A DNA stretch of 63,739 nucleotides, the filler included, from Platydemus manokwari (taxonomy: Eukaryota): the NCBI GenBank assembly GCA_037951405.1. It is 5 parts of 5 records of this genome, joined end to end, with 100 filler letters (N's around TTAATTAATTAA, not from the genome) between each part and the next. Parts side by side here need not be neighbours in the genome. Positions count along the whole stretch, not along the records: positions 1 to 14,111 come from JBBMOY011528078.1; 4 more parts are not named here. One strand, 5' to 3'. Shown one piece after another: positions 888 through 40,599 of the stretch. The notes under the pieces are model-generated. The model worked only from the letters and a program-made list of their open reading frames with translations, did not search any database and was not told the DNA's origin. Within the stretch, counting starts at the first letter, position 1. Each line of letters begins with the position of its first letter. A program made the position numbers and the translations under genes.

Positions 888-3800
888 ATGAGTCGTTCAA
901 CAGTCCACGAAAGCAGCATGTCATATTCTCGCCAATTTACCAGAGCAGGTTCTCCAACAACGTTACGACTTGAGGTGATAAATATTCCAAGATTATGATG
1001 TTCCATTAATTATTTTTCATTTGTTTTTCAGTCACGACTTCGGGAATTGGAAGATATTTTGGATTTGGAACGAGATGCCAAAACTAGGGTTGGGAATTGT
1101 TGATATCGATTTGTTGGTTATTAATTATGAAATCTAGGCTGAAAGATTAGCTAATGAATACAGTTATCAAGTTGAAGCTTTGAGCGAACGTCTTGATGAA
1201 ATTGGTGGTTCCAGTAGTCATAATGTGAGAAATCAATACGAGGGGAAAATATTTTTCATTTAATAAAATCATTTCATTCAGACCGAACAACTGAAACGAA
1301 AAGAAATGGAAGTTTCCAAACTTCGCAAAGAATTGGAAACAGCTAATATGAATCTCGAGTCTGCTGAGCACAATTTGAAACGAAAACACCAAACAACGGT
1401 CATGGAATTTACTACGGAAATCGAAAATTTACAAAAACAAAAGGGAAAGTAAGAAAAGATATTTAATTTGAAATTCAGCTAGTTTTATATTTATTAAAGT
1501 CATTAAATCATTAAATTTTATTAAATTATTTAAATAAATATTAATAATAATTTAATAAATCATTATAAATATTTATTTAATCGATATTTTAAAATTTATT
1601 TAACATTAATAAATTATTATAATCAAGTAATAATAATAATAATAATTATTATTATTATATTAATGATTGTAAAAACTATTAGTCAATCTATAAATTAATT
1701 TGATTTATAGAGTCGAAAAAGACAAAAACCAATTGACCATTGAAATGGAAAACATCTATGGGCAGCTCGAAGGAGCTCTTAAGGCTAAAGTAAATTCCTA
1801 CAGTTTTGAAAAATTTTATTAAAATAATAATTTATCCAGCAAAATGCAGAATCAAAATTAGAAGGTTTCGAAAGTCAATTATCCAGACTGAAAAGCCTTA
1901 CCGATGATCTACAACGACAACTTAGTGACATAACCGGAGCAAAGAATCGATTACAAACGGAAAACTTTGATCTGGTAAAAACTGTCCAAGAATACGAGGT
2001 GCAAATAACGACTCTAACGAAATCGAGAAATTCTCTCCAAAATCAAGTCGATGATCTCAAGAAAAGTTTAGATGATGAAACAAGAGTTAGACATTGTTGT
2101 CTATCCTAATGGATAATCGTATTTGATTTTGTTTAGAGTCGTTTACATACTCAAGATCAATTACACAATCTCCAACAAGAATTCGATAATATTCACGCTA
2201 GGCTCGAAGAAGAAAGCGAACTAAATGGAAATTTAAAAGGCCAAATATCTAAACTACAAAACGAATTACAGTCTTTGAAAGGAAAACACGATAGAGAAAT
2301 GATGCAAAAAACCGAAGAAATTGAAGAAATAAAGTGAAATCGATTATAATAATATATTATTAATAATTTTTGAATACATCGATAGACGAAAACTCACCAT
2401 AAGAATCACTGAATTAGAAGACATTTCCGAACGGGAAAGAATGAGAGCCTCTAATTTGGAGAAAGTTAAACAGAAATTAAGCATTGAAATTAAAGAACTT
2501 CAACATGATGTCGACCAAGTAAGTCTGTCAATATGAATATAATAAAATTCATCAACCCATACGTTTATATTTTAATAAGTAATGTATTGACAATTTTTAT
2601 AAGTAGTATATTATTTTTCTGTAATACATTCAAACTATGAGTGGAAAAATCGTGAAATAATTAAATTTCAATTTAGTTGAGCGCTGAAAACCAAGAACTT
2701 GCCAGAAAACTTAAGGCAGCAGAATCTCAAATAAATGAACTCCAACGTCGCATCGATGAACTAGGCATCGAGGTATCTAATTTGCAATCTGCTAATAATC
2801 AGCTATCAGACGATAACATGAGATTGAAAGCCCAAAACAATGACCTTATAGATAAAAATGCAAACTTGGATAGAGAGAACAAATCTCTTGCCGGTACTCG
2901 TTTAGTACTGTTAGTATAATTTTAATGATTTCTTCAAGACCAACTTCGTGAAGCCAAGAATGGATTGAGAGATGCCAACAAGCGCATTGGAGATTTAGAA
3001 GCTTTAAAATCCCAACTTGAAGCTGAGCGAGATAATTTAGCCAGTGCTTTGGCAGACACAGAAGACGCATTGAAAGAAATGGAACAGAAATATAACCAGG
3101 CTCATGATTCATTGGTAAGATTAAAGGCCGAAATGGAACAAAGATTAAGAGAAAAGGATGATGAACTAGACAGTTTAAGGTTATTGATAAAAAAACATGA
3201 AATATATTAATCCTTGCTTTTAACAGGAAGAGCACTTCAAGAACAATTGAAGAACTGTCAGTTACCATAACAGAAATGGAAAGCAAACACCGAAACGAGT
3301 TGTCTAAACTCAAAAAGCGATATGAAAGCTCGATTTTGGAATTGGAATTGCAATTGGATGCACTCAACAAAGCTAATGCTAAATTTATGAAAGAAAATAA
3401 GGATTTGGCCCAAAGAGTCAAAGAATTGGAACTCACTTTGGAAGAAGAAAGAAAAGCAAGAGAAGCAGTTGAGACAAGTCTACAAGTAAATTGATCAAAT
3501 CGAATCACATGCTTTGTTAATGATTAATTTTAGTTGACCGAAAGAAAGAGGATCCAAGTTCAAATGGAATTGGAAGAAACAGTTACAATTCTAGAAACTA
3601 CAACTAGAGCAAAGAAAGCTGCTGAAAACGAAGCTACTGAAGCAAATAATCGATGTGGAGAACTTAATCTACAAGTTAATAGTTTGACTCAGGATAAGCG
3701 ACGATTGGAAGGTGATATAGCAGCCATGCACACTGATTTAGATGATGCAGTTAATGGCCGACAAGCAAGTTTTAAATATTAATTTCATTACTGTTTTCTA

Positions 3801-4847
3801 AGAGATGATAATAAGTGCTTGACTTATAATTTTCATCAGTTATACTTTACAAATTGTAAGCCACAATTATTTGATAAAGCATTATATCTAATCAAATTAT
3901 TTAAACAAATTCATATTTTTAATAAAAATTCGGAATTAAATCTTATCAATTTCGATTAATTTTAAAATCCTCACACAAATTAGTCTCTGATGCACCTAAT
4001 GGAAGTGTTCATTCCAATTATTCTTATTCTTAAAGATTGATTTACTCACATTAAACATACGAAATCATGACAGTTACCTGAGAAATATTGAATATATAAT
4101 ATTTTAAAGTAAAAAGCCATAAGATAATTTTCATATTAATTAGGCCGCCGAAGACCGAGCAAATAGACTCAATACAGAAGTAGCTCGACTTGCAGACGAA
4201 TTAAGACAAGAACAAGATAATTACAGACAGGCAGAATCATTAAGAAAGCAATTGGAAGTCGAAGTTCGAGAAATAACAGTAAAGCTTGAGGAAGCAGAAG
4301 CTTTTGCCACAAGAGAAGGCCGAAGAATGGTGCAAAAATTACAGGTTTCAGATATAGATTTGATGATATATTCATTGTAATATATTTCAAACGACAGGCA
4401 AGAGTGAGAGAATTGGAGTCAGATATGGAAGCTGAAGCTCGTCGTGCCAAAGATAGTGCAGCCCAAGCAAGGAAATTTGAGAGACAGTGGAAAGAATCCC
4501 AACAACAAGCCGATGATGACAGACGTATGGTATTGGAATTGCAGGATTTATTGGAGAAAACACAAATGAAAATGACAACCTACAAACGACAAGTTGAAGA
4601 ACTAGTAAGTTTAAAAAACAGAAAAGGATTCTTTAAACACCTTAAATTTCAGGAAGAAGTAGCTTCAATAACAATGAGCAAATACCGCAAGGCTCAACAA
4701 TCGATTGAGGAAGCAGAACATCGGGCTGATATGGTCGAAAGATCCATGACAATGAGACACACTTCTGGACCTGGAATTCGATCGATTTCAGTTACAAGAG
4801 AAGTTAACACTAGCTTGAGAGGAAACAGATCCACTAGTATTTTGTGA
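888..4847 (+). CDS. Prm: Paramyosin, complete 15-exon gene
   Basis: Manual splicing gives [29 protein letters not shown]|[19 protein letters not shown]|[21 protein letters not shown]... through [35 protein letters not shown]|AAEDRA and [11 protein letters not shown]|ARVRELE to [12 protein letters not shown]. This is colinear with flatworm (schistosome-type) paramyosin. Approximate exons: 888-974, 1032-1088, 1138-1224, 1282-1448, 1711-1788, 1840-2084, 2137-2333, 2385-2518, 2677-2893, 2939-3179, 3227-3485, 3534-3764, 4144-4344, 4398-4604, 4653-4847. AATAAA lies near 4939. Confidence 0.96.
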
Positions 4848-6314: not shown

Positions 6315-9060
6315 TGGAGTATTAAGCAATTTATTAAACCAAAATATTTGCCGCTCATCTTTGACAGTATTTTTTACGACATCTCAAGAAAATAGCTCCA
6401 GCAAGCAGAACTGTACAGGTTTAAGTGATTAGGCCAAGTATCAATCAACCCGCTCCAGAGACCAGTCTAAAGAAACAAATAGGAGAAAGAAAATTCCAGC
6501 ACGAAACCTCCACGAGTTAGAAGAGTTTTTCTGATTTTAAACTAAAAATTATTTTGAACCTTATATTTTCTTAGCTTGATTTTCGCCAGAACTAGATTAA
6601 ATTGATTTTTGATCCTATATAAAAAGCTGGAAATCAGTTGAAGACAATGAAAAAATTTGACGCAAGCAACTAGAAGTCAAAACAATCAGACCAAACAAAC
6701 CAAAAACTTAAGAAAATTCAATTTTCTTGCTAGCAGTGTTCTGGCAGCAACTGAAAGTACTTTTGAAAGTATAATCAAATCGAACGTATACCGGCATTCA
6801 AAAGGATTTGGGGCACAAAGCACCCTGACTCAAAGAGATCTTTTATCATGAAAATTCTATTTGTTTTGTTCAACAATGAGTTTCCTTCAAACCTTCCGTG
6901 TAGTGGTTAGAATTTTATCAATTGTAGACGAGTTGACGAAGTTCGCAAATGAGAAGATCAACCAGAGCCAATATCGCAAGACTTGGATTGTTTTTAAGCC
7001 AAGATCCGTAAGAATCAAGAATGAATTGACTAACCTGAAATCCCGAGAGAAACCCGATCGTTCCATGCATAGACTTTTGTCCTAGCTCACAAAATATGTA
7101 GCTCGATTAAATGATGGCGAACCATCAGAGAAGAACAGTTCGAAATATAAAGATTTTTAAGAATTCAAGTTTCTCAGTCTTTTTCTCATCACGAAGTCGT
7201 AGTTAGTTCACTTCTCAATTCCGGATTGTTACAATAATAGCCGCACTTACTAGGGTTGAAAGTCAAATGGACCTTAGAAGCCAAGTCAAATATCCTACCT
7301 AACCTATCAGCAATCCCCGCTGCGTATGCCGAAATAATAACTAAGTCATCTGCATAGGGTAACATGAAGAATTCCATCTCAGACAATGTGAGAGGACGTG
7401 GAAAATTATCACAACATTTAACATTAAAGTAAAAAACAAGACAGGACAGAATCATAGACAAGGAACACCCTTGTTTCACACCCTTAACAACCTTAATCGA
7501 CGGAGTTATTATTCCTGCACAGTGTTTAGTAGTTGAAACATTTTCATGAAGTTCTTAAGCAAATTAATTTTACCAGAGGCACAATCACTCTTTGCAAGAG
7601 TTCATGAGTTAACCATCCTCTGAAAGTAGTACTTTCTAATTCTCAGACATTAAATGGTCACAAGTAATCCAGCGAAGAATTCTATTGTTCAGAATCATAC
7701 AAAAGATTCTGTAGGACGTGTCCATCATCGCAATTGGTTGTCAAGATGAAACTAAATGAGTTTGACCATCTTTGAGTGATTTCAGAATAAGACTAGTCTT
7801 AAACCTCTTCCATTGACCCGGCTACACTCTTTCGATATAATAAGATTATAGAGTTTATAAAGAAAAACAAAATGTGAGTCAATCTCGTACCAATCAACAA
7901 ACAAAAGATTATCATTTCCAGGAGCGGAGTTACTTGATTTTTTAAATGCATTAAAAATTTACTCAATAGTAATTGAATCCTTTGTAAAGTTATCCTCAGA
8001 ATAAGGCAAGACTATATTCAAATCAGGAAAAGGCAGTAGGAAATCATAGGTGAAATGGTTCGTAATTTCCTCTATATTAGACAAAGAAGTGGGAGTCGAT
8101 GATGGAAGAATACGCTTCACCACCTTTGGCATAATATTATATTCCTTCCTAAGTTCAAAGACCTATCTAATGTGTTTTTCCCAATAATTTAATAAATAAG
8201 ACTTATGTTCACTTATATTGGCAATAAAAGCAAGCCAATGGTCATTGTTCCAATGGATAACCCAATGTCAGATGTTCTTATGCTCCGAAACGGGAAATTA
8301 TCATATAATATATTCGTTTTCAAGTGAGTAATAGCAATAGCAGGTAGTGGGGGTATGAAAACTATTCCACTCTTACCCGACAATCTCAGGTGGATAAGAC
8401 CTTCAATCGCTGGTCTGCTTAGCAATTCAGAAATAAGATCTTCTTCCCCTAACGGAAACTTCATTAAAATTTCATCATCCAAAGACAGAGATTCAATTTA
8501 ACTTTTGGGTTAACACTTTGCGACAAATAATGCTGTTTGAAGTCAACAGTAACCACAAACTAACAATAACACAGAGTACCAGAACTAAAGATATCTGTAA
8601 CCTTTGTTTCTTTATAGGTGCAATATTTGTATAACAAAGTAAAGAAAGACTTTTTAATTGCACACAAGGCACACCAAACCTTAGAGTCTGAACACGCTTC
8701 AAAAATCGTCGGACCTATAGTATTCGTATCAGATATAGTAATAATAACTATATTAGAAACCAGTATTAAATCAGAGGTTATAGTACCGCCAAGTGGTTTA
8801 TAATCAGTTAGTTCTTGAGAATCAAAAATAGATGGGGATGATGTAAAAGAATCATCACTGTAAAAACCAAATAAATCTGTACTCTATTAAAAGTGTTGGC
8901 AATTATATAATCATCTTCTTTCCATTAGATAGATCGACGTCGTGTATATAAACGCCACATGTCGTCGAAAAAGGGATATTAGCATAGTCAAATGGTAACA
9001 TTGCTTCATCAATTAGGTTATCAAGTAGAGATTCATAAAGTTTGTCATCAAAATCATTCA
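6315..9060 (-). mobile_element. Degenerate non-LTR retrotransposon (RLE-type, NeSL/Utopia-like): RT domain and flanks
   Basis: Minus-strand RT motifs with stops and frameshifts: SAPGND, AMMDTSYRIFCMILNNRILRW, GVKQGCSLSMIL, LPYADDLVIIS and LTFNPSKC (ORF 7189-7479). Confidence 0.85.
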
Positions 9061-9074
9061 CAGCAATATATGAT

Positions 9075-9445
9075 TTATCTACAACTTTTGGTCATAGCTA
9101 TTAAGCTTTTTGGTTGTTCATTGCTCTGCATGATTCATTTGACAGTTCTTGATTCATAGATATCTTGGATCCCCATCAATTCTTCTATCATACTTTCTAA
9201 TGCTTGAATGTTGTCTTTCAAATCATAACCAACTATGATTTTCCCTTAAACATAGTGATTCACTTTTTGACAGGTTTCTTCGGCATCATAAGCATTTCTG
9301 AGATTGGTTTCATTTAATCAGCATTTGAGACAAACGTCATTCTCAAGAATTATTTGGCCTTTGTATCTTCTTAGACTGACTCATACAGGATTCTTTTTTC
9401 CGTAGAAATCGGTGATCATTTTTACATCGAGGTATATCATGCAGA
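9075..9445 (-). pseudogene. REXO4/ISG20-like DEDDh 3'-5' exonuclease remnant inside a mobile element
   Basis: A single frame reads MIYLDVKMITDFYGKKNPV*VSLRRYKGQIILENDVCLKC*LNETNLRNAYDAEETCQKVNHYV*GKIIVGYDLKDNIQAL...GIQDIYES...PKSLIAMT. It aligns by eye to REX4-family motifs LDCEMV, RVSIVN..G, SGI.PE.L and KGRILVGH.L.ND.K.L. Confidence 0.7.
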
Positions 9446-10599
9446 TTTTTCTCCTCCTGACCCGTTAGTGTTTGCAGCTTTCAATAACATGACAACTGTC
9501 GTTTAAAATTTTCCAATGGAATTCTCACTAGGCTGCCTGTGTTGAACTTTTTCGGTCTTCGATATTATTGACTTTCATAGAGATCAATTTCGACTTATTA
9601 CTTTCTTTCTCAGTTTTATTTTGAGTATGTTTTGGTTTTATCATCAGGACAGTTATCAAAAAGACTATGACTATTAAGTATATCCTACTTTATGGTTTGC
9701 ATTTCCGATTTTAACTTCTTTCTTCATTTTCCTTTATGATATTTATATTTAGGATGTATTTTTGGGTTTGTGTTGGTTGCATTCTTAAGGTTTCTTTTTT
9801 TTTACTTTAAATGATAGATATCTTCTTTCTTATATTTATTTCTGTGCACTATTGAAGGGTCTTTTTTCTTTTTCTTTTTGATAAACAGGTCGGTGTTTAC
9901 TACTTTTACAATGACATACGGTTCTTCATTTATCATTTGTAATTTTACGAATTTCCTTAGTTTGCTTCTGGGTCATAAACCCTTAGTTTATACTCTACTT
10001 TAAATTCATAATTACATGTCTTTTTATCATGATAATTCTTATGTTGTTTCTGTTTGAATTTAAGGTTTAATTGAGCTTGTCAGTATATGTATCATGATTT
10101 TTCGTACTGAGTCTATTGGCATTGATGCATCCATTAAATGCATTAGATAACGTGATAAATAGTCGGTTGATTCATTTATTACTATATTATAACCCAACGA
10201 GCTTAGTTTTTTGGTTTGTTTTTTATTTACGAAATTTGATAACATGATTTGAAGCATTAGATTGTCTCACTCAGCTAATGCATCGCTTGTGGTCAACATG
10301 GGGACGTAATGATTTTCTTTATTTTGAACATTCAGTGACTTCTCTTATGAAATTTCTTAATTAGTCTTGTCTCCTATCAGTTTTATCTTCTTCTCGTTCC
10401 TCTTTTATCAATATGCAATATGTCCCCCTACTCAATTTTTGGTTTATCATATTTTTGTATATTTTGTTTAAATTTTCCTTCTTATTTTTTTCTTTCTGAA
10501 TTGCATTCACTTCAAGATAATTTTCAGGGTTTTATAATTAATAACATGATTTTATTCGTAATGTCTGTAAGTCCTAATATAATTCTTTATGTTTTCCTA

Positions 10600-10825
10600 T
10601 TAAATTCAATCTTCTTAATACTACAAATTATGCTTTTTCTATTACTTTGAACATGTGATCTATCTTAATACTTCCCATTATCAGACTAAATATCACTTTC
10701 CCTACTGTTATTATAGATGCTCCTGTTGCTCTGGTTAATGTATCATTAACTGTTTCTATTTTTCCCATCTATAGATGCCTTTACATTTCTTACATTTATT
10801 TGCACAGCTATTACTGGTCTTTTTA
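10600..10825 (-). pseudogene. Retropepsin-like (retroviral aspartic protease) remnant
   Basis: KRPVIAVQINVRNVKASIDG resembles RP.I.V.ING..VKALIDTGA. After an internal deletion or frameshift it continues LTRATGASIITVGKVIFSLIMGSIKIDHMFKV, which resembles the flap and C-terminal strands. Confidence 0.6.
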
Positions 10826-11159
10826 AAGCATAATTTGCACAATTCTTACTTAATATAATTGAAGTTGTATGTTCAGATATAACGGTTTATTTTACCCTTC
10901 TTCTCATGATAATTTCTTTCTTTCCACAGTTTCTCTTAATTGCATTTTTGCTTGTAGATCTTTTTATACAAACACCAGCTTTATTTCTTTTTGCTGTTGA
11001 TGGTGATTGGTAAAATTCCTATGGGTATGCATGGGTTTTTCCCTTAACCGGTTGATGCATAGCTTGCGGTTGTATTAGTTGCGGTGGTATTTTAAAATAA
11101 TAATCTCTTGGTTTAAACAATTGTATGTATGTATGTATGTAATATTTCTGGCACTTTAC

Positions 11160-12860
11160 TTATATCAGATGTCTTGCTGTTAGTGTGAATATGAAACACA
11201 TCGGAATATATCCTTTAATGTCTTTGCGAAGATGTTTGAAGAGAGTATATTTTTATCAATCCCGCTATGAATTATATTCAATTCATAGGAAAAACGAAAT
11301 CACTTGTCCTATTTCTTGAAAAATTCCATAAAAACTATAGAAAATGCCTTTTATTGCCTTCTCAGAATGGTCTGTGAATAGTAATGCCTCATAGTGGAAT
11401 GATCCATCTAAACTTCTTTGCAACACCTTATGTACCATGTTTCTTATGACCTTTTCTCTTTCAAACGGGAATAACATGTGTTTTCTTGCTTTTTCTATGT
11501 CGTCAGTTGCATATATCCAATTATTATTCATATTCATAATTGGTTTAAAGGCTAAATTTCTTGCCGGTCCATTTGCTTTTAGTGTTTTTGCATCACTTCG
11601 AGGTTTCTTATCATCCATTCATATCCATCCTCCATTATCTGAGAGAAATACATAATCCATTACATTTGAACAAGTGTCTCTAGGCTGAGCTTTGTAATAA
11701 TATTGTTAATATGATTCCCCTAACTGGTTACAATAATATTTTTTGGTTGTTATATATAATTGGTATCTCTCTGAAACAATGCTCGTGTTTCAGTACTACT
11801 AGGTTAATTATTTTCTTGCACTTAAATGTGTAGATTACTTCTCCTACTACTCGAGTAAATGTTTCTTTTTCTTCTAATATTATTAGTGCTACTAACCCCG
11901 GCTTTGTTATTGCTGTGGCCTATTTGGTCTTTAACACCTCGACTTATCTTGCAGTCATTTAATATAAGATCCATCCTTGGGCTAAATAGTAGAAATAGCC
12001 GAGTTTGTTATTAAAGCACTGTACGAATTTTATATCCAGTTTTTTTTAACTTTCTTCTTTGCATTCTTATCTGATTTTTCTTCGTAATAAACCACTATAA
12101 CCATTTAAGCACTACTCTTATCTTGGCTGTTATGTATGGATCTCATTGCGCTTTTTCCTTCTTCACCCATGTATATTGTTGGTGTTTATTTCATGCTCAT
12201 TTTAAATCTTCCCCTAATACTATCGGTTAAATAACTCTCCACAAGCTTCGTCACTTTAAATATTTTTCCATTTACTACGTGCTCTCACTTTCTTAGTTTG
12301 AATATTAAATGTAACTCGAAAATTCTTTAATTCTTTGAGGTAATGTCTTAATTCTACAACATCTGCTAATGTTTTATCACAAACTTGATATTTTTCTCTT
12401 TAGAATTATCCTCCTCATCCAGCCAGTCTTGCGTGTTCTATTGAATGTCTAGTGATTCTCTTTACCAATATCATCGCATATCCTTGTAATGTATAATATA
12501 TACTTTTTAAAATGTTAGTTTACATTTTATTTCTGTTGGCATTTCTAGCATTGGTGCCATGTTGGTTCTAATATTGCTGTGTATGCTCCTGATGGCCATG
12601 AAGAATAATTTTTTAACTCCTGATACATTAATTTGTAATCTCTGATTTTTTCAAACAGAAATTCTGACTTTTGGTCCACGTACATTTCCTTAGCTATGAA
12701 TTTGCCTCTGGTTATTCATTTTTATCTAACAATGAATATTTTTGTTCCCAATGTGGTTTCCCACAATCATATTCATCAATTCCTGCATCTACTCCTTCAA
12801 TCAATCCTACTATATACATGATAAGTAATATCTTAACTATATTGGTAAATTTAGATTTTT
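11160..12860 (-). pseudogene. Chuvirus-like (Jingchuvirales-type) envelope glycoprotein, degraded
   Basis: Signal-like KILLIMYIVGLIEG is followed by YDCGKPHWEQKYSLLDKNE. Later motifs are KPGLVALIILEEKETFTRVVGEVIYTFKCKKIINLVVLKHEHCFREIPIIYNNQKILL*P and WIYATDDIEKARKHMLFPFEREKVIRNMV, then hydrophobic FYSFYGIFQEIGQVISFFL and YTLFKHLRKDIKGYIPMCFIFTLTARHLI. Motif order matches chuviral G (YDC..SLLD; GEV...KC..C..E.P; GIY..D....R.H..FP.E; TM). Confidence 0.75.
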
Positions 12861-14009
12861 GCTGAGATTTTTTCTTTTCTAATTGTTTTTTTCCTTTTGA
12901 ACAACGAGTTTTCCATTTTCTATCATTTGTTCTAACATTGATTGAGCTAATTTTCTTCATTATTGATTTGATTAATTTCATTTTCATATCAATTTGGTAT
13001 TAATTCAATTCGGTTATTTTATTATTCATTTACTTTATTGTTGTTTACAGTGTTTTTAACATTTTACCGGTCGTTTTCTCTTCATTTTTTATATTCATAA
13101 CTTCCTTAGTCGTTTCTTTGTCAGTTATCTTATTGCTTATTCTGTTTATTTCTTTTCTGTATATAGTCATGCAATGCTCTAATGATTTTATATGGGACTT
13201 TTCATATGTATGTACGGATTTGGCCTTACCACTATGTGCTTGTAGATACCGTTTAATTTTCGCCTGTACTTCTTCTTTTGATTAAATTCTTTCATGGCCT
13301 GTGCATACATTTGTATTTTTTGAGGCTGATATTTCTTCAATAAGTGCTTGTGCTCTATATTTCATTCTTCATTTTACTTTTTCTTCCAAACCAGCATCTT
13401 TCGGTGGTATACCTTTTTCATTTGATATTATAAGGTAATCATTTATTATGATCTTAATTTTGATTTTACTTTTAATTCCTAGTAGCCTTCATCTAGGGGT
13501 CTTAGTAGGTGTTCTTCTTTAAATCCAGTTTCTTTTTACAACTTATCGTCTCTTTTCTCTTGTTCCTCATCTATGTCTTGTATTTGTTCTGCTTGTTATT
13601 TAATTTCTCCATTGGTATCATAGTTTAAGGCTATTAGTTAAAAAGACAATAATAGTAAAATCAAGAAGGTGCAAATAAATAAGAACTGGTGTCCTAAAGT
13701 TAAATAAATTTGAAAATCAATTAATCAAGAAATTGATGAATCGAAAAAAGTTCATAAATTTGATAAATTAAATTCTGCATTGATCGTTGATAAACTTGAT
13801 ATTAATTCCAAAAAGGTGTTGAGAAGAATTTTGGATTAATTAGATAGGAAAATGCGCAGCTCAAATAAAAGTAATTTATTAGAAAGATTGAATGAGTAGG
13901 CAAACAAAAAAGTAATAGTGCGATTAAATGCACTAATGAAATTGAATATACTAGCACCGATAATGGAATAGGAAATAGTTCCACTAAGGAAAATTACGCT
14001 AATAGTTTT

Positions 14010-14111: not shown

Positions 14112-14211
14112 NNNNNNNNNNNNNNNNNNNNNNNNNNNNNNNNNNNNNNNNNNNNTTAATTAATTAANNNNNNNNNNNNNNNNNNNNNNNNNNNNNNNNN
14201 NNNNNNNNNNN
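14112..14211. other. Artificial scaffold gap with six-frame-stop linker (also 24666-24765, 39909-40008, 54731-54830)
   Basis: An identical N44-TTAATTAATTAA-N44 structure occurs four times. Confidence 0.97.
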
Positions 14212-15228
14212 AGAACTCTAATTTTTATAAATTCTAGTATACCTCATAGACTAATATCACAGACCTCTTAAATTACACATTTTGCAATTGATCAATTTTA
14301 TCAACATTTAGAGTAGTATTATATACCGGTTTTTTGGTGTCACTTGCCACCTGAATGCCGATACGAATGTAGTGAACTTACCACGCAAATTCGAAATCAT
14401 GGATGACCACCGATAATAATATGACATATTAATTTAGTTATGTCATTATTTTCTCTCTGTTCATTAAGAAAGAAAATTTTAGCTGGTCTCATAGTTTTAG
14501 GAGGAATGATAATATTATTATTTAAAAAGAAATCTTCAGGATTAATATAAATGTTAAAAAATTATAAATAAAGTTAGGAATAGAAGTTAAATATTTATAT
14601 ATAGTTTTGTAATCTATTACTTCTAAATTCTTATTTTTATAGAATTAAAAAAAGAGTTTCATCAAGATTATCAAATAACGAAAGCTAAAGGGATTTATCC
14701 ATATAATTATATAAACTCATATGAAATTTTAAATCAAACAGAATTACCATCAATTGAAAGCTTTTATTCGAGGAAAACATTAGAAGGAATTACAAACGAA
14801 GAATATATGAGAGCAAAACGTAAAAAATTTATGGGATTATACAATCTTGTATTTAAAACAAGATATAAATGGAATAATTTTGGAATGGAATAATATTTTT
14901 AATTCTACTACTTTTCGCTTTATGTTTATTAGACTTTTCATGAGCTTTAAAAGCTTGAATTGTCTTAAAACTTTAATTACAAATTCGGCATTGGTGGCTC
15001 ATTTTTTAAGCTTTATTTTTTAATTAGAACTCTAATTTTTATAAATTCTAGTATACCTCATAGACTAATATCACAGACCTCTTAAATTACACATTTTGCA
15101 ATCGATCAATTTTATCAACATTTAGAGTAGTATTATATACCGGTTTTTTGGTGTCACTTGCCACCTGAATCCCGATACGAATGTAGTGAACTTACCACGT
15201 AAATTCGAAATCATGGATGACCACCGAT
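14212..15228. repeat. About 200-bp direct repeat (14212-14414 and 15026-15228)
   Basis: agaactctaatttttataaattctagtatacc...ggatgaccaccgat occurs twice, with three substitutions seen by eye. Confidence 0.9.
14642..14830 (+). pseudogene. Protein-primed DNA polymerase B fragment (Polinton/Maverick-like)
   Basis: ELKKEFHQDYQITKAKGIYPYNYINSYEILNQTELPSIESFYSRKTLEGITNEEYMRAK matches the KG.YPY.Y...LP...FYS.L...I..E.Y motif of pPolB. Confidence 0.75.
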
Positions 15229-16112
15229 TTGTTTAATTTTTTCTGCTGCATTTCGATGATGAACTGAGATAATACAAAAATATTTTATCTACTTCTTGAT
15301 AACGCTCTTAGTCATAGATTGAAGAAATGTTTTTAGAACATTGAAGTTATAATGCTTCCGAAGAACAAAACTGCTCATCTTCAACCCATGGATGCAGGTG
15401 TAATAAAAAATTTAAATCATTATTGCAGAAAAAAGTTAGTAGTTGATTACATGAACTCGCTTGATCAAACAAAAGTCTTGATTATTAAACTTAAGAAAGC
15501 CATATTGATACTCCATGAAGTTTGGGAAGATGTAAAAGAAGAAAACACCAAAAATTTTTTCAAATAAGTTATTTTAGGTACTCACGGATCTTATGCTGAA
15601 AAAAGCTTGCCATCAGTTCCCGTTCTTGGGACACATAAGAATGAGCTTGACCAAATAATGGTTGAAGAGGATATGATCCAAACAGAAGAAGTCATTGATG
15701 ATTATGAAATCATCTGCATTGTGTAAAGAAGGATACACTTTTGAAGATGTTATACTTTGTGCTGAACATCGTCAAATCTATGACACTTACAACTTAAGTC
15801 CAAGCAATTTGTTCCATGCAATTGAAATTGTCATCTAAGCAAGTTGTTCTTCAAACAGTTTTACTAAAAAAAATAACCAATAAAAATTTAAAAGAAGTCA
15901 AAGTCTATTTACAAAAATTTATTCAAAAGTAAATTCTACAGAAAACTTTTGATGATTTTTTAAATAAATAATTTTCTTCTTCTTAATAACTTCATCATTA
16001 ATATGGTGATCATATAGATTTTATTAATTATTTATATTATTCATTATTTGAATTAATTCACAATGTAAAAGGAAACGACTTCTAATATTTCGGATTAAAA
16101 GGGTTGACAGTA
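15229..16112 (+). mobile_element. pogo/Tigger-family (DDE_1) transposase remnant with 3' TIR
   Basis: LLLDNALSH...IMLPKNKTAHLQPMDAGVIKNL..YCRKKLV...AILILHEVWEDV (ORF 15352-15567). TIR-like CGGATTAAAAGGGTTGACAG followed by TA at 16091-16112. Confidence 0.85.
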
Positions 16113-19100
16113 TACTAATATATTTTGTGTAACGTGAGATAGACATTTTCGTATTTTGGTTATTTCTTAATCACTTTTAACTTCTTAATAATTTCTATCA
16201 TCAATGAATTTCTTAATTACCAGCAATATAAACATTTTCTTCGTCAATGTCGTTTTGACAATTTTCTCAGACAATGGATATTTTTAACTCATCGCTTCGC
16301 CGTTGAGATGAGTCTTTTCATGCTGTTTGTCTTGTCTCACTCATATTTTTTGGGAATAAATTATGTTATCTAAATATTCCTGCATAGATAACTGTTCATT
16401 AAATGTTACAAAAAATAATGACTTTGCACCGTAGAACCCTTATTTTATCATTTAAGCATTTACTTGCAAACACAATCAAACATGCATGTCAATGTACAAA
16501 TGGTTTAAATGGAAAATTATAATTCGAAACAGTAACATAGTCACTTAACAACATACACATAGGGATTGACAATTCCCGATTATACAAGATTCAATAAGTC
16601 ATATAGAAACTTGAGAAATTAAAGATCAAATTAAAATGTGATACAAGCGTGAGAAAAAATTACACACAAATATCAAGTATAAATATCTATGTAAAGATGT
16701 CCAACGACCGGTTGGAAATCAAGATTTAGATTGTAATTTTGTGGAATTTTAGAGGCACTTTTATTACGAAAATACAGATTGCAAACTTCGAATCTTTATA
16801 ACGTCAACACAACATAATTTAATATTTTCCGCCGCAGTTTCAAGGATTTTTTATGAAATTATTTTAAAAGATAAAAGATAAGCTGAATATGTGCATGATT
16901 CACGGATAAAATATTAATAAAATCTTAACTAAAATCGAAACCATCAAAATAGTAAACATTATAATATCCATAGGTTTTATTTGTAATTTAGAAAAAACAG
17001 TAAATTATAATAATTATCATGAGTGATTAGAAATACATAAAGTTAATTTCCAAAAAATTCAATGCCAAAAAGAATGGTTTTAATAATACAGTTGAAGATC
17101 ACAAGTTCATTTTTAATAAATAAATTTTCTTTTTATTTGAATATTAGAATACTATAATGATATGTTTTAATATTTACCTGCAATCTTGCAGATTTGCTCC
17201 TTTTTCTTCAAAACAGTCTGCAAACTAGTTGATTAGCAAATTCTCTGCTATTTAACATGTCATTGCAGTACCTCGATTTTTGTTGCCTTTTATTGGAGTG
17301 CACTAAATAATGATCAAATTTAATTTATGAATTGATATTTCGGATGCATCTAACTGGTTACTGGCATATGTATTCATCGTGTCTAAGTATATCGACCCCT
17401 TTAATTGTTATTTTTAGGTGTTTGGCTTGTTTATGTCACACAATTAATAATGTCCTTACCGAATCTTCAATCATGACATCATTATTACAATTATTATAAT
17501 TCTTCATAAAAAAATAAATCACTCTAAATATTTATTAAATAATACGAGATACATAATTGAATACACTTATTTTATTCACTAAATCACATATTGTTTAAAT
17601 AAAAATTAATCACTACATTAAATTGCAGATAAAAAAAATCTAAATACAAAAATAAATGTAAATGTCATTCGAACTGAGCCGGTTAACACAATGATTATAA
17701 TTATTCGATTTATATATTATTAAAATTATTGCCATTATTTTTATTTTATTCCACTTTACATTACCTCATATTTGGAAATGTATATTGATACAAAAATAAA
17801 AGCTAATAATGTGAGTGCCGAATAAAAATATGTCCAAATTTTGGAATTGTCATCAACTAAAATCAGTGAGTATTAATGATATTATTTACAATTTATATGT
17901 AATTACCAATTATTACATAACATCTAGATTTATTCATATAAGGCCTATCACCACAAATGACACAGAACTTTTTATCAACTAATGTTCTGTCATCATTGAT
18001 GATTATGACTAAATTGGTCAAGAGCGAGTAAGCTTCTCTAGAAATTCCAACGACTCTAAATATTATTTTGGAAAATTTCGCAAATTCCGGTGTGAATCGG
18101 CACATTATTTGATGAGGCTCCAAAATTCGTATTTCACGTTCCAAAGGTGTAATCGTAACATTGATTTTTCCTTCTATAGTTATCAAATAGAATGAATATA
18201 AATTCACTAAATTTTTGTAGATCATTATACTAAAATTCTATTTTTATTTTGACAAACTTAGGATATATTATATGGTGAGCACATTTATAAATATATTCAA
18301 TTGATTTTGAAATGAAATTTCAATTATATAGAAGGATAATAGAAACATAAAGATTCATTCTATTGATCTATATATATGCCAATGTGATGAACCTTTTTAT
18401 TAAACATGATTGAAAATTATTTTTAAATAACTTTAAAATAATCATTGAGATAGATAAATGAAAATGTTATTACGATAATTTAATTACCAAAAGGTTTGTA
18501 GCATTTTGTTCCATTTGTTGGAATATATTCGTGACCACAAACAACACAAATTATATCTCGAGTCTTTCTTTCAGGACCACCAATAGAAATTTCCCTATAA
18601 GAAATATTTCTATAATCCGTTGAATTAATTCTGATAAATCGTATATTTCGCAAATGAAATACCAATTCTACTGGATATATTTCACATACAATTTCCATCG
18701 CTTCTTCTAAGACATAGGAATCAATATTAGGAGTGATTAAAAATATAATTTTTGCGGCTAATGTAATAAACATTATTACGAAATTAAAATAAATGAACCA
18801 ACAAACCATATATAATCAAACGAATATCTTGGCTCATCTTGATTGTTGGTATTGTGCAACGAATGAGATAGGTTCCATTGGAAATATTTTTGCTCAATTG
18901 TATGCCATCAGTCACAAATTTGATATTATTATAGCCTGGAGAAAAACATTTAGCTTGATAAATACGTCCAAGTTTGTTAGGGTCAGTGAAATACAATTTA
19001 ACAGTCATATTACTATCGGCAAAATAGATATTTTGTTTTGGATGAATTTCAAGTACAAAGTGAACTAATTATAGCAATTATTTTTATAATCTTAAATTAA

Positions 19101-19879
19101 ATAAAATTAACGTTTAAAATGATAACAACTTGTCACATTCACCCCATATGTACTCGTGCAAGTAAAGCACACACATCTCTCGCTGTAGATAAGACTATTC
19201 GTTAAAAATATCAACTTGCGACTAAAAGCATCGTAAGTTGTGTCTTTGGTATAAAAGTGCAAGGACTCCTTTGGTAAATAATCGGGATATATTGCGCAAA
19301 ATAATATCATAAATTCTTCCATCATAAAGATTTCAGCCTTTGGCCAAATATTCAATTTGATTTGGCCTTCTAAATTTTCAATATTTTTACTTAATTTAAA
19401 TTATATTATCTATAGTATCATATATTGTTGATAATAACATCAAATATTACTGTAGACGAATAAAGTCAATTCCTGAAAACTACTTGAATGCTCTATGTAG
19501 CAATGAAATGTATAATTCCCAGTTATAAGATTGTTAGGAAATGTAATGTTGCCTTTATTTATTATTGGTTGGATTTTTACATTATCCTTGTTAAAAAATA
19601 TACACATGCTTTGAATACTGACATTGTATTTTGGATGAGTATAATATGTTACCAAAACTTCATTTTCATAATCGATACAGTAAAATTGATATTTGGGAGT
19701 ATAATGAAAAGATATGTTTGCTAAACAATTATCAATTATGAATATATTTTCATTTATTTCTAATATATTTAAAATATTTTCGCTTCAATTCAAATATAGT
19801 AATTAACTTAATCAGATACCAAGTTATGAAGTTCAGGTTTAATTATTTTTCTTGAAGAAACTTATAGGTTATAATACTG

Positions 19880-21300
19880 ATATCGGTTGTTATAAGGAAA
19901 TAGTAGAATGTTATTAATATTTATAAATTCAAAAGTTATACAAATACATATATAAATTTGTAACTTGAAATTTTCGATAAAAACATTTCCGCTGATAATT
20001 GCATTTATCATCATGTTCAGTTCTTCATATTTATCCAATTCTAAAAACTTGCCTTGTTCCACTAAACATAAAACTTTAGTTTTCGTTACAGAATACATTG
20101 CTTCTTTCACAGTCCACCTTTATATTACGTCTTTGTTGTGGGTTTTGATGATTTATAGAACATTGCTCACAACACGAAAATTGTGATATTGCACCTGCGT
20201 TGATGTGTTCTTTGCCTTTACCATATTCTATTTCCATTTCAATTATTTCCAGCTCTACTTTCCATATACAATATTGTGATGTATTTGGAGAATCCTAATT
20301 CAATATTCATTTCAGAGCTACGAGATCAATTCTGACAATAAATTCCTTACTATATAGGTAATGCTTAAATCAATTAAAAAACACATAGAAAACTAGCAAT
20401 TATTTTCTTGTTAAACAATATTTTTGCTGCTCTTTTGTCAATATTCTTGATGCATACGTTATCACTCGTTCTTCACCGTTTTGTATTTGAGAAAGCACGG
20501 TTTCTACGATACCGAAAGTTGCATCAATATCCAAAACATATTTCCCTTATTTGCATGGTAAACTTGATGGTGAAATTCATGATGTTTTCAATTTCTGAAA
20601 CGATGTGGTTGCGTAAATCATTCTGCTCAAATTTATTCTCTTTCTTCAGTGATTAGTATAGTGCTTGTGTAATACCAGCAAAATCATTTATAAAATCATT
20701 TATAATGACCACATAATCCTGTAGTTCCTTGATATATTGAGGTTTTAACCAATTTTTAATTTCCCCAAGCATGTCTTCATCTGTTCGTATGTCGTTTTTG
20801 TAAATCACATGTTGATTGTCTCGAATACTCTACATATTTCATTACACGAAGAATCTAATTCTTCTAGCTTTTAATATCTTCCTTTATATCTCAATTATAA
20901 CTATTTTTATATCTCCATTATATCAACTTTTATATCTTTTTCTAATATCTTCTACAACTTCTATATATTTTCCTTAAATCTCCTTTTTTAGTTCTTAATA
21001 GCTTACTCCTTTTTAACCACAATATTCAGTCTTTGATCGTTTCAGAATCGAATCCTGATGCGTGGTCGCCACGTGAGCCGTACTTTTATTTAAAACCATA
21101 CATTAAAAATGAATTAAAAAGTCAAGACATCATAAATCTATTTATTTACAAATATTTAAACAAATTATTTAACTTTATATAAATATAATTTATATTAAAT
21201 TAGAATTAAATTAAAATTAAATTAGAATCAAAATTTTAATTCATATAAAATTTAATTTATAAAAAATTTAATTCAGATAAAATTATAGTTATTTGAAGTA
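19880..21300 (-). mobile_element. Ty3/Gypsy remnant with LTR end, PBS, gag-like region and RNase H C-terminus
   Basis: PBS-like TGGCGACCACG at 21071-21061 follows an AATAAA-containing LTR-like end. KMEIEYGKGKEHINAGAISQ (about 20190-20245) resembles the RNase H end FEIEYRKGKEN..ADALSR. Confidence 0.65.
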
Positions 21301-21329
21301 TCACACAGTGTTCATTGACTGTTTTTCCA

Positions 21330-23150
21330 AATGTCTAAATATCATCAAGATAAATTACACAGTTTGTCCAATTTCCAGACTTCTATACGACAGTCACAAG
21401 TTTCTGAAAAGTCGTAGGCATTCAACATAATTAAATTAAACTGAAATGCTGTTTTTTCTTTTGCTTCTTCCTCTAATTCAACTTGATGATATCCATTCAC
21501 CAAAAATATTGTTGAAAAATATTTTGCACATTGTACGGCATCGAATATTTTGTCGAGAATATGTATAGGGAAAATTGGTATGGATGTATCTTCTTTTAGT
21601 TTCCTAAAATTTAATTTCATCCTAATCGTTAGATTCTTTTTAAAATTTCCCGATGAATTATTTGGACTGATAACGTTTGATTTCAACATTCCCCCTATTA
21701 GGTGTTTAATTTCTTCTTCTAATCCTATTGTAAGTTTAAGGTGTTTGACAGCTATTGGTTGATAAGTGTTTGTTTTTCTAAGACTGGACCTGTACTAAAA
21801 CTATTTCTGTATTTTGATAGAATACTTATAAAATTATTCTTATCCTCCGGATTCAGTATATCATCTAATTTCTGTTCATTATTTTTAATATTTTATTTCA
21901 TTTTCTTTTTCTTTTTTCGGAACATAAATTATTTAACTCAACTGAATTCTTATTTCCGTCCTTAATTAATATATCCCTTCTACTTTCCCATCCTTATTCA
22001 TATAACGTATTCCAATAAAACGTTCTAGGAATAGTTATGGCACTACATGAAAATAATTCTGTTGCACAAATTACAGTTTGTAAATAATTCTGTTCTGAAG
22101 ACTTTATTATTTTCACATCTAATCCTGTTAGGAGTTCTCCATTTTTGATTGAATAATCCTTTAGCATTAGTACATTGACTAATTCTTAGCTTATGTATCT
22201 CCAATTTCTCATTTTCAACTTTACAATCGACTATTGGTCTGTTTTATGCCTTTTCTAGTATTCGTTTCTTTATTACCATATCTGTTTTTGCAAAAATTCT
22301 GGTTAGTTTAGCTACTTCCTCATTAACAAACTGTACATAATGGCCCTCTATCGAATTCAATTGAATGTGCCCAGACTTTCTTGGCTTAACTTGTTAGATA
22401 TACTACAATTTTTTTCAGAATGAGTATCTAAGATCGAGATATTGTCCTCTTATAATGTGATGCTTTTTTCAAATATTTGACATCATTGACGTTTGTACGA
22501 CAAAATCTTTGTATATGGGAATCACCACATCGAAAACATTCAATTGAATTACTAAAGCGAGAAAATTGTTCTTTTTGTTTACACTTGAAACAAGTTACAT
22601 CCTTCATTGATTTCTCTTTTCGAAGAGTTTTGGCGCTCTTTTAATTTGGCAATGTATTGCTTGAGCCTTAAATCATCAGCCTTTAATCTCCAAATGATAT
22701 CCATTTCGTCTGATTTTACGTGTTTCAGATCCCAAGGCATATTCAAACATTTAAATTTTGGCTGTGATAAATCTGTTTCTTTCTTGATAAGTCTTACGGC
22801 TTCATCTAAATTCTTGGAGTTCCATTGCTTCAGCCCAAATTTATAGTCCTTATTAAGCTCTTCAATGAATATCTTCTTGGAAACCTGTTCCTTATTTTCA
22901 ATATTAATTCCAGTCACGGAAATTTCAACTATTTTTGAAAAGTCTTTGATAGACTCCGACTCGTAATTATAGATAACTCCCCTGTGCAACTTAAATCGGT
23001 TTTTACTTCTGACTTTACACCAAGATGTACATAATTTAATATAAATTTTCTTCTCTTCTTCAAATTTTTCTGCATTTGCATTGATTCTGCATATTCGTCA
23101 ACTGTTGAAAGAAATTCTTACACAATTTCACCATTAAAAAAGGTAGTTTC
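21330..23150 (-). mobile_element. Ty3/Gypsy remnant (gag, protease, RT N-terminal part)
   Basis: RT reads FPIHILDKIFDAVQCAKYFSTIFLVNGYHQVELEEEAKEKTAF (ORF 21345-21689). Protease-like RPIVDCKVEN lies near 22230, and ORF 22579-22989 is gag-like. Confidence 0.85.
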
Positions 23151-24807
23151 TTGAAAATTAATCAAACTATTTCTAAATCTACTCGTGACGCATATTGATA
23201 AAGAAATAGTAGACTAGTATTAAATTTTATTAATTCAAAGGTTATACAAACATAAAAGTATTTAAACAAATACGCATATAAATAACCTATTTTATATATT
23301 TTATCAATAAAATTAAAAATAATAAAAATATTGATAAATAAAAAATAAAACAATACGAACCAGTCAGATTGTAACACCTACTGATATTCATAATAATTGG
23401 ATAAGAGCAATGAAAACAAATTTTCCTATATATTAAATAAGTCAATTCTTTGATGAGAATTCCAAAATCGCTGATTTCATATTCCGAACTATTTATTCCA
23501 GTTATTATCAAATTGATGTTTGAAAATTCTACGAATATTGGCTTGTAAACACATTTAATGAAAGGATAGTACAAGTAATAAATATGCTCTTCATTGGGTG
23601 ATACTGAGGCCGTGAGTTCATCATCTAAACATAAAATTAGTAAAGTCAACCTTGTTTTATGTTTTAATCAGTTTGACAGAATATTGATAACATCGGTCGA
23701 CATATCTCATCAAATTTTTACAAAAACATTAAAATTATTCATTCACAGATGAATATTCATTTTATCGTTGTTAGTTGTTATTATGTAGCTATTACATATT
23801 GGAAAGTATATTATTACAGATTTATTTATAATTTAATAGGTAAGATAATATTAATTTGACCCATTGTAAATTTATTTATTAAAAAAATAATAAAAAAATA
23901 TTAAATACGTCATGAAAAATACATTGCATATGTAAAAATAAGGTAAAAAACAAATACAAAGTTAAATATTGTATTTTGTTATAGTTACACCAAACAATAA
24001 AATTAATTTATCAAAAAAGAAAATAAAATCATTAAAAATATTATTATAAATATTATTAATACTATTTTTTAATTTAAATATTATTTATTCAAAATTTATT
24101 GATAGCATATTAAATTTAATATTATTTATTTATTTATTTATTCAAAAAATCTTAACATTTTTATAAACATTTGATACGTTGGAACTTTGTTCTAATGTAC
24201 TTGGACGTCTGCAACGAAGCATGGTAATAAAAGCAGGGTAATTTGCAATATATACAAAAGTTTTCAGATTTTTCGTATAGAACCGTATTATTTTTAGATG
24301 TTCGATCAGAGATCTTTCATTTTAGTTGGCTCATTTTTTAATATAATTTTTATATTTTTTATGAATAAAAATTAGACTATTATCAGGACTTTCTAATAAC
24401 TACATTTAAAATAGATAAATTATATCCTTTATTTATCATTAAATAAAATTATAATATGTGATTACTTTTTACAAATGAAGTTATGTATTTAAAGTTTTTA
24501 GCGAATATTTAATAAGTAAATTCAAAGGACTTATGATGACCACATCTTAGACACTATATCATTTAACAGTATAATTAGTATTTGTGTGAAAATAAATTTG
24601 ATTAAGAGTAACCACTTTTAGCAAAAATTTAGCAAATAAGAAAATCTTATTATTGAAAAAGCAAANNNNNNNNNNNNNNNNNNNNNNNNNNNNNNNNNNN
24701 NNNNNNNNNTTAATTAATTAANNNNNNNNNNNNNNNNNNNNNNNNNNNNNNNNNNNNNNNNNNNNTTATGTTTAAATGATTTGGTAAAACAAAAACTTTA
24801 AACAACT

Positions 24808-25968: not shown

Positions 25969-28525
25969 TTATATGTGCTTGTCTTTGTGTTTGTCCTGCA
26001 CCATGGATATTTTCAAAACGAACCGAGAAACCGTGGAGAAATGCTAGAAAGACGTGCAATGCTAAATATTAAATATCAAACACTCACTTCGATAAATAGA
26101 AACACTGCCCCGAGGTATACCACGATAATACATGCAATCATGAAATCGAAAAGTGCTGGTTTGACCCTGATAATAGCAAATAGAAATGAAAACGAAAATT
26201 ATTCGACAAACCTGTGAGCTGTAATCGATACCTCCGTATCGGCAAAGAGAACAAATTCTGGATCTCGTGGATCTGCCCTGATTTTTGATTTTCGAACATT
26301 TTGCAAATATCGTTTCATTATCCTTTCGAAGCTCACCAAAATCGGATGTTTCGACTCGACCAGTTGCTGACTTCTGGGATATCGGGTCAACAACATCATA
26401 TCGGCTTCAATGGCCTCCTGTGAAATCCATTGATTCTCAATGATCAATCCATGACCATCTTCTAAACCGTAAAGCACTCGCATCAATGAATCTGCAATAG
26501 CACGCGTGTTTCGGGTCAAAAGATTCAAAGAAACCTGATCATCGAGAATCGATCTACGATTTCTAATCCGATCTTTTTCCGCCGAAACTGTCATTGCGGG
26601 CATTTTCCTCAACGAAAATCGTTCATGTTCCCATTGTAATTCATCGTCATTCAAATTGATACGCTTATGAACAACGCTCGTACTGCTATTATAAATCTTC
26701 ATCGTATATTCCAGTGCTTCGACGAATCTGTGACCATTGCTACCTTCTTTCGGTGGTTTGGAGACATGGAAATGCAAGCCTTCATCAACCAATCCCAATC
26801 TCTCAAAACAGATAGCCATCGATACTCGTTCCGGTGTTAGAGATTCGTCTGAATATTACAGTTACACGACACCAAATATAACGGAAGAATTCAAACCTTG
26901 AAGTTCATGTAACTCTTCTAACCATTTCTTGGTTCCAATATAATTGAGCTTGCCACCACCGGACAATAGAAATCCAATATTATATCTATCATTAACAACA
27001 TTATTATTATTGGTTTAAAACAAATATATGATTTACTTTGCTTGACTTTTGGGGCTGGCATATAATCTCGAAAATAAGCGCATTAATTGAAGCATCACAA
27101 CTACACCACTGCCATTGCTGTCATAACCATAACTAAGACTCTATCGTGCATAATATGATAATAAGTTATACACACATCACCACTCACTGGAGCCATTCCC
27201 ATCGAATCATAATGTGCCACTAACAATATCGTTGGTAATTGCTCTTCAATTCCATTACCAGCTAATTTTCCCTGAAAATTAATCACATAACTGAATCAAC
27301 AACACACGATATTCGAATATAGAACAATTATTGATGTCTAGTAAATGATATGACAAAACAATGACCATTTATCACAACTCCACAAACATTTTTGACAATC
27401 AATTATTAAACAGATTTTTATTTCATTTTAACAGTACAAATCTAAAATCCGTTCTCGAAAGTTAAAGGTCACACATTTTCATAATATTTATAATTTAAAG
27501 TACGTGTCGAATATAATTGTTTTTATATTATTAATTATATATTAATATCAAATCGATACCAGACACTTTTAATGATGAATTTGAAAGTTTTGTAATTAAA
27601 ATACAATCAATTTCAGTTTCAGTGATTCACCTGTTTGATTGTGAATATGCACAGTGAAACAATTAAGTGCTCTAAAAGATCAATTATACTTTTTTTAAAA
27701 TCAGGTTATTCACTGAAATAGATTGAATCAATTAAATTTAACAGCTTGAGCAAAATATGATTGTATAAACAATAAAAACATCTACATTTCCATCAACTTA
27801 CGTAGAAATTTGTGATTTGAAAATCTTGCAGTGCTTGATTTTTATGATATGAAGTATATAATTGATAACCATTACTCATTACGGAACTAATTAATGCTTA
27901 AAAACAATGATAAAAACACATAATGGAACACATCTTACCTTGGGCAGCTGAAGATGACTTACTAGTTTCCATCAAATGCTGCACATTGTCATATATGTTT
28001 TTAACTTCTTCAGTTTCGAAACTAAAATAGATGGGTACAGCAAAATCTTCTGTTAACAGTTCTTTTTCCAAATTTAAAATATGCTAAAGTTAAGGGTAAT
28101 AAGTTACATCAAATAAGTTTACAACCTCTTTCACTGTGTCATCCCACTTGGACTTCACTGGTAACAGAATTATTATACTGCCAACATTTTGTGAAATAGC
28201 TAGTTTTATTGATGCTGCAGAGACTTCCATTATTTTTAGAAGCAAACATTTTCTGCTTAACAATTTCGAATACGAAGTTTGAGCTTCAAAATTAAAAGCT
28301 GCACTTCGACTGCCTTGACATATTAATATACATAATTTATCAAATGCGAAAATTACCTAATTTAACTCCTTGTAAATCATATTGCTGCAATCGATAAGCT
28401 GTAAATTGTTGAGCTGCTTTTACAGGATCAATTGGTGATATCAGTATTAACAAGGGAACTATAAGAACAAAATAATATGGAATAATATTTCGAAAAGACT
28501 CGATCAAATCCTCAAACACAGTCAT
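25969..28525 (-). CDS. NCLN: Nicalin (M28-like, NOMO/TMEM147 complex subunit), about 10 exons
   Basis: [12 protein letters not shown]...[21 protein letters not shown]|[10 protein letters not shown]..., [137 protein letters not shown], and last exon [24 protein letters not shown] (26043-25969). Confidence 0.95.
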
Positions 28526-39730: not shown

Positions 39731-40599
39731 TTATCACATGATTTTAAAATCAATCCAATCAAATTCGACACAATAAATATAAAATACATAAATATAAATA
39801 AATATAAAATGCAATCTACGTGTCGCATAACATCTAATCAACTATATAAAGAAAAATGGAGCCTGTTAAAATTTGGACTTCAATCTTTAGTCATTGTATA
39901 TATCCTTANNNNNNNNNNNNNNNNNNNNNNNNNNNNNNNNNNNNNNNNNNNNTTAATTAATTAANNNNNNNNNNNNNNNNNNNNNNNNNNNNNNNNNNNN
40001 NNNNNNNNTGACATTATATATATGCATAGTTTTATTGTCAATATTTCCCTTTTTAATGAAGGATTCAAGCTACAATGTTGCTGATACATCTCTACATTAT
40101 ATAAAAAACCGTGTTTTTTTACCATATTATATATATATATATATATTGCTTAATAAATAATAATTACATTCCTTCCTGCATGACTTATTGGCATGTAGAG
40201 CTATAATGTTAAATGCTTAAAATTATAAAATATATTATAAATTCTCTGATAAATGTCCACCGAAAGAAAAGGGTATCATCATGATGCATCGATAATGATA
40301 GAAAATTAATTCATATATAACCCTATTAAATCTGAACAGATTCAGTGAGATTTTAATTGACAAATTTCAGAGTTTAAAATTTTATTTTTTATATTTATTA
40401 ATATTTTTCTAAATGTTTATTTTTAGTTTATTAGTGATTATTTAGAAACAGTATTAATCAGCCTAGAATATGTGGGTACGCGCATTAAGAACTTTGAAAT
40501 AGTGTATGGTGTGTTGAAAATGATATTTAATGAGTAGTGAGACTCTATAATTTACAATTTTCACCGTTAAGATAACTATGGAAAACGATTATGTCATAC

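Follow-up and report, generated by a model that had tools for sequence, protein, structure and literature searches.

A probable decayed gag-env-pol Ty3/gypsy retroelement with a chuvirus/gB-like class III envelope ahead of its protease in the flatworm Platydemus manokwari

The planarian element Burro, or GYPSM1, is treated in a review whose authors we take to be Arkhipova and Yushenova. In the available part of that text (PMC6431247), Burro is described as a giant gypsy-like element in which Env, similar to the fusion proteins of mononegaviruses, is in frame between gag and pol and is placed between BCL2 and PR; the ORF is of ~4,900-5,100 aa, the elements exceed 30 kb with an internal region of up to 25 kb, and decaying copies with stops and frameshifts are reported in Dugesia japonica. 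Chary and Hayashi (PMC13524379), in the sections of their paper at hand, find a GAG-ENV-POL arrangement with an HSV/gB-type ENV in those gypsy elements of Nematoda, Bryozoa and Platyhelminthes that carry env, and list 9 flatworm elements; these sections hold no mention of a polyprotein or of in-frame or fused ORFs. The same sections cite Sacco et al. 2022 for nematode non-canonical ERVs, in which the ENV-POL order is flipped after a metavirus captured an RNA-virus glycoprotein. The placement of env before pol is already known, from planarian Burro in 2019 and from three phyla in 2026, and the novelty that an initial annotation of the present locus had implied for it does not stand.

Here we describe a locus in a window of 63,739 nucleotides (the whole stretch of DNA that was analysed) from Platydemus manokwari, which we read with high confidence as a decayed, internally deleted gag-env-pol Ty3/gypsy LTR retroelement of a flatworm genome, bearing a class III envelope of chuvirus/gB-like type. 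Its recognisable part measures about 4 kb (Table 1), and the element ends were not found. It shares with Burro the flatworm host, an Env akin to mononegavirus fusion glycoproteins, the position of Env ahead of PR and the stops and frameshifts of a decaying copy. With the GAG-ENV-POL errantiviruses of PMC13524379, as described in the same sections, it has in common the gypsy-type PR and IN, the class III env before pol and the host phylum; those errantiviruses, however, are intact, LTR-flanked and often multicopy, whereas this copy is dead and without RT and RH. The nematode ERVs are alike in their order and differ in their hosts. Anakin, in the available part of PMC7642597, also carries a chuvirus-like glycoprotein on an LTR element, but it is BEL/Pao and not gypsy, its hosts are mosquitoes, and its GLY follows PR-RT-RH-IN; our locus does not have this layout of a Pao element whose glycoprotein comes after the integrase, env here being upstream of both PR and IN. 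Troyka was also considered and set aside as irrelevant, since according to the source excerpt no Troyka encodes an envelope.

Table 1. Features recognised in the decayed copy and its surroundings (positions along the window)
Feature	Position	Strand	Remarks
Region upstream of env	12850..13540	-	Frame of the env N-terminus, several stops; no gag or Bcl-2-like domain detected
Hydrophobic segment at env start, internal and signal-peptide-like	12784..12840	-	Kyte-Doolittle peak 1.96, P0001 residues 234-252
Class III fusion glycoprotein ectodomain, chuvirus/gB-like	11282..12849	-	PF24664 Monjiviricetes_fusion; stops and frameshifts
Expected transmembrane anchor and env tail	11124..11285	-	Degraded: 5 main-frame stops, (TGTA)5 microsatellite at 11122-11141
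Linker, env tail to protease	10824..11123	-	2 stops in a frame shared by the C-terminal part of the env ectodomain and the first strand of the protease
Retropepsin-like aspartic protease (moderate confidence)	10590..10823	-	Frame break ~10766, after the catalytic-position Asp
About 250 bp in place of RT, RNase H and integrase front	10344..10589	-	Internal deletion, roughly 2 kb or more
Gypsy-type integrase, C-terminal part, broken	9829..10343	-	tblastn E 2e-6 (P0025), 3e-5 (P0005)
Decayed ISG20-like (DEDDh) exonuclease fragment, tentative	9000..9443	-	Likeness by eye
Second gypsy-like element, env-less	20175-23100	-	gag-like ORF 23097-22582, zinc-knuckle trace ~22600

The class III envelope is recognised by Pfam PF24664 (Monjiviricetes_fusion), which is matched at 11675-11286 with an E of 1.5e-11 and, in another frame, by a second env piece with an E of 2.4e-10. 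An env profile gives iE values of 1.2e-9 at 12840-12276, 1.5e-22 at 12057-11706 and 1.6e-26 at 11675-11282, and tblastn agrees; across the expected anchor and tail, the tail profile finds no match in any single frame. PF24664 is a family of negative-strand virus glycoproteins, and solo glycoproteins are reported in mosquitoes in the available part of PMC7642597, both of which would suit an endogenised chuvirus-like glycoprotein gene that came to lie beside unrelated retroelement debris by chance. However, the long relatives that score best are polyproteins of retroelements, and in tblastn these match both the env piece and the integrase piece of this copy, in order, so that a chance neighbourhood of this kind is largely refuted and keeps next to no probability.

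From the env ectodomain through the linker to the start of the protease, three-frame translation and profile search give a collinear arrangement on the minus strand in one frame. This frame, which is that of the C-terminal env ectodomain at 11675-11286, runs from QLFKPR... at 11123 to ...ASIDG at 10764, a distance of 120 codons with 2 stops. The initial annotation had placed env upstream of, and nearly in frame with, the protease, the two being joined by about 100 codons with only two stops; both statements are confirmed, and the count for 11126-10770 comes to 119 codons with 2 stops, at 11021 and 10889 (11 and 7 in the other two frames). In 10,000 base shuffles of this stretch the mean was 9.9 stops, and 2 stops or fewer were reached with a probability of 0.0016 in the given frame, or 0.0045 if the best of the three frames is taken; window-wide, with real genes included, 3.1% of 122,710 stretches of 119 codons have 2 stops or fewer. 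Over the longer run 11675-10770, the frame of the env end and the protease start, this decayed copy has 8 stops in 302 codons. Five of these 8 stops are clustered at 11285-11162, in the transmembrane/tail region; these five, together with a break of the protease frame directly after the Asp at the catalytic position and the three or more frame segments that make up env, had escaped the initial annotation. With a microsatellite and a stop cluster at 11122-11285, the frame shared by env and protease could be partly coincidental.

These stops bear on an account in which env followed by pol is ancestral but the two are separate ORFs, divided by a stop or a programmed frameshift, with no Env-PR polyprotein. 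The five stops at 11285-11162 and the two in the linker are in its favour, as are the search of PMC13524379, which (in the sections at hand) permitted ENV and POL to be as much as 2,000 nt apart, and one relative, P0010 (748 aa), which ends just past env. However, stops are found throughout the copy, the interior of env included; the linker keeps the env frame with stops far below chance; and every relative that has both env and PR has them in one predicted protein. We consider separate ORFs very unlikely and retain the reading of a polyprotein in which Env stands ahead of PR and Pol.

The protease was sought with a profile built from 17 protease domains of relatives. Its two best single-frame matches in the window, 10823-10769 (iE 1.4) and 10762-10615 (iE 0.083), are adjacent and collinear in different frames. 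In a frameshift-aware scan, where every join from one frame to another in the window (126,744 in total) was scored with an X at the break, the join at 10766 ranks first with 17.2 bits (E 0.027), and the next site reaches 9.3 bits. The protease of this copy has no Pfam match; because the join at 10766 scores first window-wide and the two profile matches are collinear, we hold with moderate confidence that a protease is present and is broken after the Asp at the catalytic position. Beyond it, a POL profile of 996 positions is unmatched until about position 821-832, which falls at 10343-10311. Since the profile matches only from there, RT and RNase H are missing together with the front of the integrase, and it is after the protease, rather than at the env-PR junction, that the real deletion falls. 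The integrase end is also found by profile search, with iE values of 8.9e-5 and 0.0055; env, the protease matches (10823-10615) and the integrase end follow one another on the minus strand, and the order RT-RH-IN is seen in relatives only. With env and protease frameshifted and with RT, RNase H and the integrase front missing, the copy is dead, a pseudogene that makes none of its proteins.

Past the integrase, ISG20 (1wlj) is the second of 3 PDB matches for the fragment at 9000-9443, with an E of 0.53 that is not significant, and Pfam gives no exonuclease family there. Captured ORFs in rotifer elements are the topic of PMC5408684, judging from the available part of it. Upstream, no profile match to gag was obtained near env, and an N gap (14112-14211) lies 1.3 kb upstream. 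A Bcl-2-like domain before env was sought with a 3-sequence profile in what is a decayed copy, giving an iE of 6.0 at 13137-12879 and no match in the join scan; among the relatives, P0010 has a Pfam Bcl-2 match. The available part of PMC6431247 names Gag, Bcl-2-like, MATH, BIR and ankyrin domains for Burro, none of which was detected in this fragment; Gag and Bcl-2-like were tested by profile, and MATH, BIR and ankyrin were covered only by the Pfam scans of 8.9-13.6 kb. No LTR pair around the element was found in a repeat comparison of positions 1-30,000 or by blastn, in an assembly that is gapped.

In the one sequencing run with this DNA, which may be the source of the assembly, 1,637 contigs align at 80% likeness (1,370 of them less than 95% alike) and pile on env, protease and integrase, which fits a diverged multi-copy family, contig depth not being copy number. 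Among RNA data, no run containing the sequence was listed. When contig depth is summed, env and protease stand high and the linker low (10-13); among the 8 pieces listed of 1,662, none from another copy spans the way from env to PR. The depth and the lack of a bridging copy among those pieces would agree with the junction being a breakpoint unique to this copy, where a gag-pol-env element or two tandem elements were fused by deletion, and the large deletion nearby, from PR to integrase, does show that the copy is rearranged. Several observations, however, make such a breakpoint highly improbable: in this copy the integrase end comes after env and not before it; the linker has few stops in precisely the frame of env; env-carrying gypsy elements of flatworms are GAG-ENV-POL in the sections of PMC13524379 at hand; and the order, with similar spacing, recurs in ten of 17 relatives.

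The relatives were obtained by phmmer against 1.84 billion representatives, which returned 20 matches, all to the env part; as their identity, over part of env, is no more than 23-45%, they are distant kin and not copies of this family. Pfam scans covered 17 of the 20, three of 76-79 aa being left out, and PF24664 was present in all 17. Protease follows env in one protein in the ten relatives mentioned (P0014 among these, below the Pfam cut-off), and the remaining seven are env-only and uninformative on order. Seven cluster members were scanned as well, giving four with env then PR, one env-only and two pol fragments. In P0005, P0024, P0025 and P0028, env, PR, RT, RNase H and integrase stand in this order in one predicted protein, and gag traces occur ahead of env in P0021/P0030 (Retrotrans_gag E 1.7e-4, below the cut-off) and in P0013 (zf-CCHC). 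P0024, of 4,099 aa, comes from a contig of 12,673 bp, which leaves little room for introns, so that it would be close to one uninterrupted frame. The canonical gag-pol-env order was not seen, pol preceding env in none of the scanned relatives. The initial annotation had proposed that Env precedes PR/Pol in a polyprotein and had pointed to other family members for a single env-PR ORF and for the places of gag, RT and INT; the proposal is supported by these proteins. By this comparison of predicted proteins, the order env before PR belongs to the family as a whole and is no peculiarity of this copy caused by a break.

The spacing of the two domains is in keeping with this. The FP motif of env and the first Asp of the protease are 233 aa apart in this copy, inside the range of 193-511 in relatives (193, 198, 218, 240, 240, 259, 259, 436 and 511 aa); this distance was measurable in 9 of 15 relatives, which represent seven clusters as two pairs share clusters, five others having no motif pattern and one no protease. 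The hydrophobic segment at the env start has the same placement in several relatives: a hydropathy peak is found there in P0005, P0021, P0024 and P0028, and P0008 and P0013 have none above 1.6. Near the env end, all six relatives examined have a peak.

An env tree of 20 rows, in which one of 17 branches is well supported, leaves the copy unplaced. When the env-linker-PR frame was used in a word-index search of proteins, 468 candidates came back, none at E <= 0.001, which is weak evidence. With P0024 as query there was no match in viral contigs, and a metagenome scan returned 4 gypsy pol loci with no env-profile match.

A separate observation on the relatives is that several predicted polyproteins hold more than one DTG-bearing protease domain: seven in P0025, four in P0013, three each in P0005 and P0008, and two each in P0004, P0007, P0021, P0028 and P0030, all of them predicted proteins. 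A phrase search of the open-access literature found no paper on repeated protease domains in gypsy elements. A further reading, that the locus belongs to an undescribed flatworm gag-env-pol lineage with an ISG20-like 3'-5' exonuclease after the integrase and with kin that multiply the protease in one polyprotein, is one we regard as unlikely.

Other features were observed in the window. The second, env-less gypsy-like element has RT at 21761-21265 and RNase H at 20832-20153 (minus strand), and no integrase was detected in it at 20175-23100; its RT-RH part (21761-20175) was considered as the missing pol of our copy and rejected, as it lies upstream beyond the gap, with no env between, and is accompanied by a zinc-knuckle-like gag trace of its own. 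Downstream of this element, four short ORFs occupy 17893-19784 (-), three of which were scanned in Pfam with no useful match; a similar C-x2-C motif closes the two at 18815-18483 and 18237-17896 (-). The stretch at ~7.0-8.9 kb is probably a separate decayed LINE-like element, with an RT fragment at 7189-7554 (-; RVT_1 E 4.8e-7, non-LTR-looking by eye) and, upstream, a Cys-containing ORF at 8560-8883 (-). ORFs at 41622-42605 (+) resemble, by eye, the C-terminal part of a non-LTR retrotransposon and have no Pfam match, and the stretch at 15250-15560 (+) is presumably akin to a Tigger/pogo-type DDE transposase fragment. Beside the gap, a 203-nt direct repeat (14212-14414 and 15026-15228, 99% identical) may be an assembly duplication, and the gaps themselves are split by a 12-nt spacer (TTAATTAATTAA where read) at 14156-14167, 24710-24721, 39953-39964 and 54775-54786, an assembly artefact. 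A host paramyosin-like gene lies at 2846-4847 (+), 48-74% identical to its matches; eight of these 13 are species-named, all flatworms (Mesocestoides, Schistosoma, Cichlidogyrus, Macrostomum) with no planarian named, and the others are one synthetic construct and four without an organism name. The low GC of the DNA would suit a triclad host. Long ORFs at 26199-26855 (-), 36344-37243 (+) and 48301-49620 (-), with no Pfam match, are probably host exons.

From ER translocation and the polyprotein biology of LTR elements, we infer that an intact element would make one long polyprotein. Gag would stay in the cytosol, and the internal hydrophobic segment would send the Env ectodomain into the ER lumen, probably being cut by signal peptidase; the transmembrane anchor would then stop transfer, so that the tail, protease and Pol would again be cytosolic, and there the protease could free itself and Pol from the membrane-bound Env. 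The hydropathy of most relatives examined (a start peak in four of six, an end peak in six of six) supports such a topology as a prediction, and it is plausible that signal peptidase and the element's own protease would release Env, as the initial annotation proposed. The element would work like Burro and the GAG-ENV-POL errantiviruses, the likeness to Burro being drawn from its description. Among the papers listed by a literature search, no relevant work on envelope processing or particles of Burro was found.

The arrangement is unusual: partway along a Gag-Pol polyprotein it inserts a membrane glycoprotein. The present copy is too broken to tell how such a polyprotein is processed or whether enveloped particles form; it adds one more, apparently little-sampled, flatworm host to the known arrangement. 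The repeated protease domains of the relatives are the more interesting side lead: if the reading that includes them is true, they could supply a membrane-tethered Env-Pol precursor with built-in dimers for its self-release.
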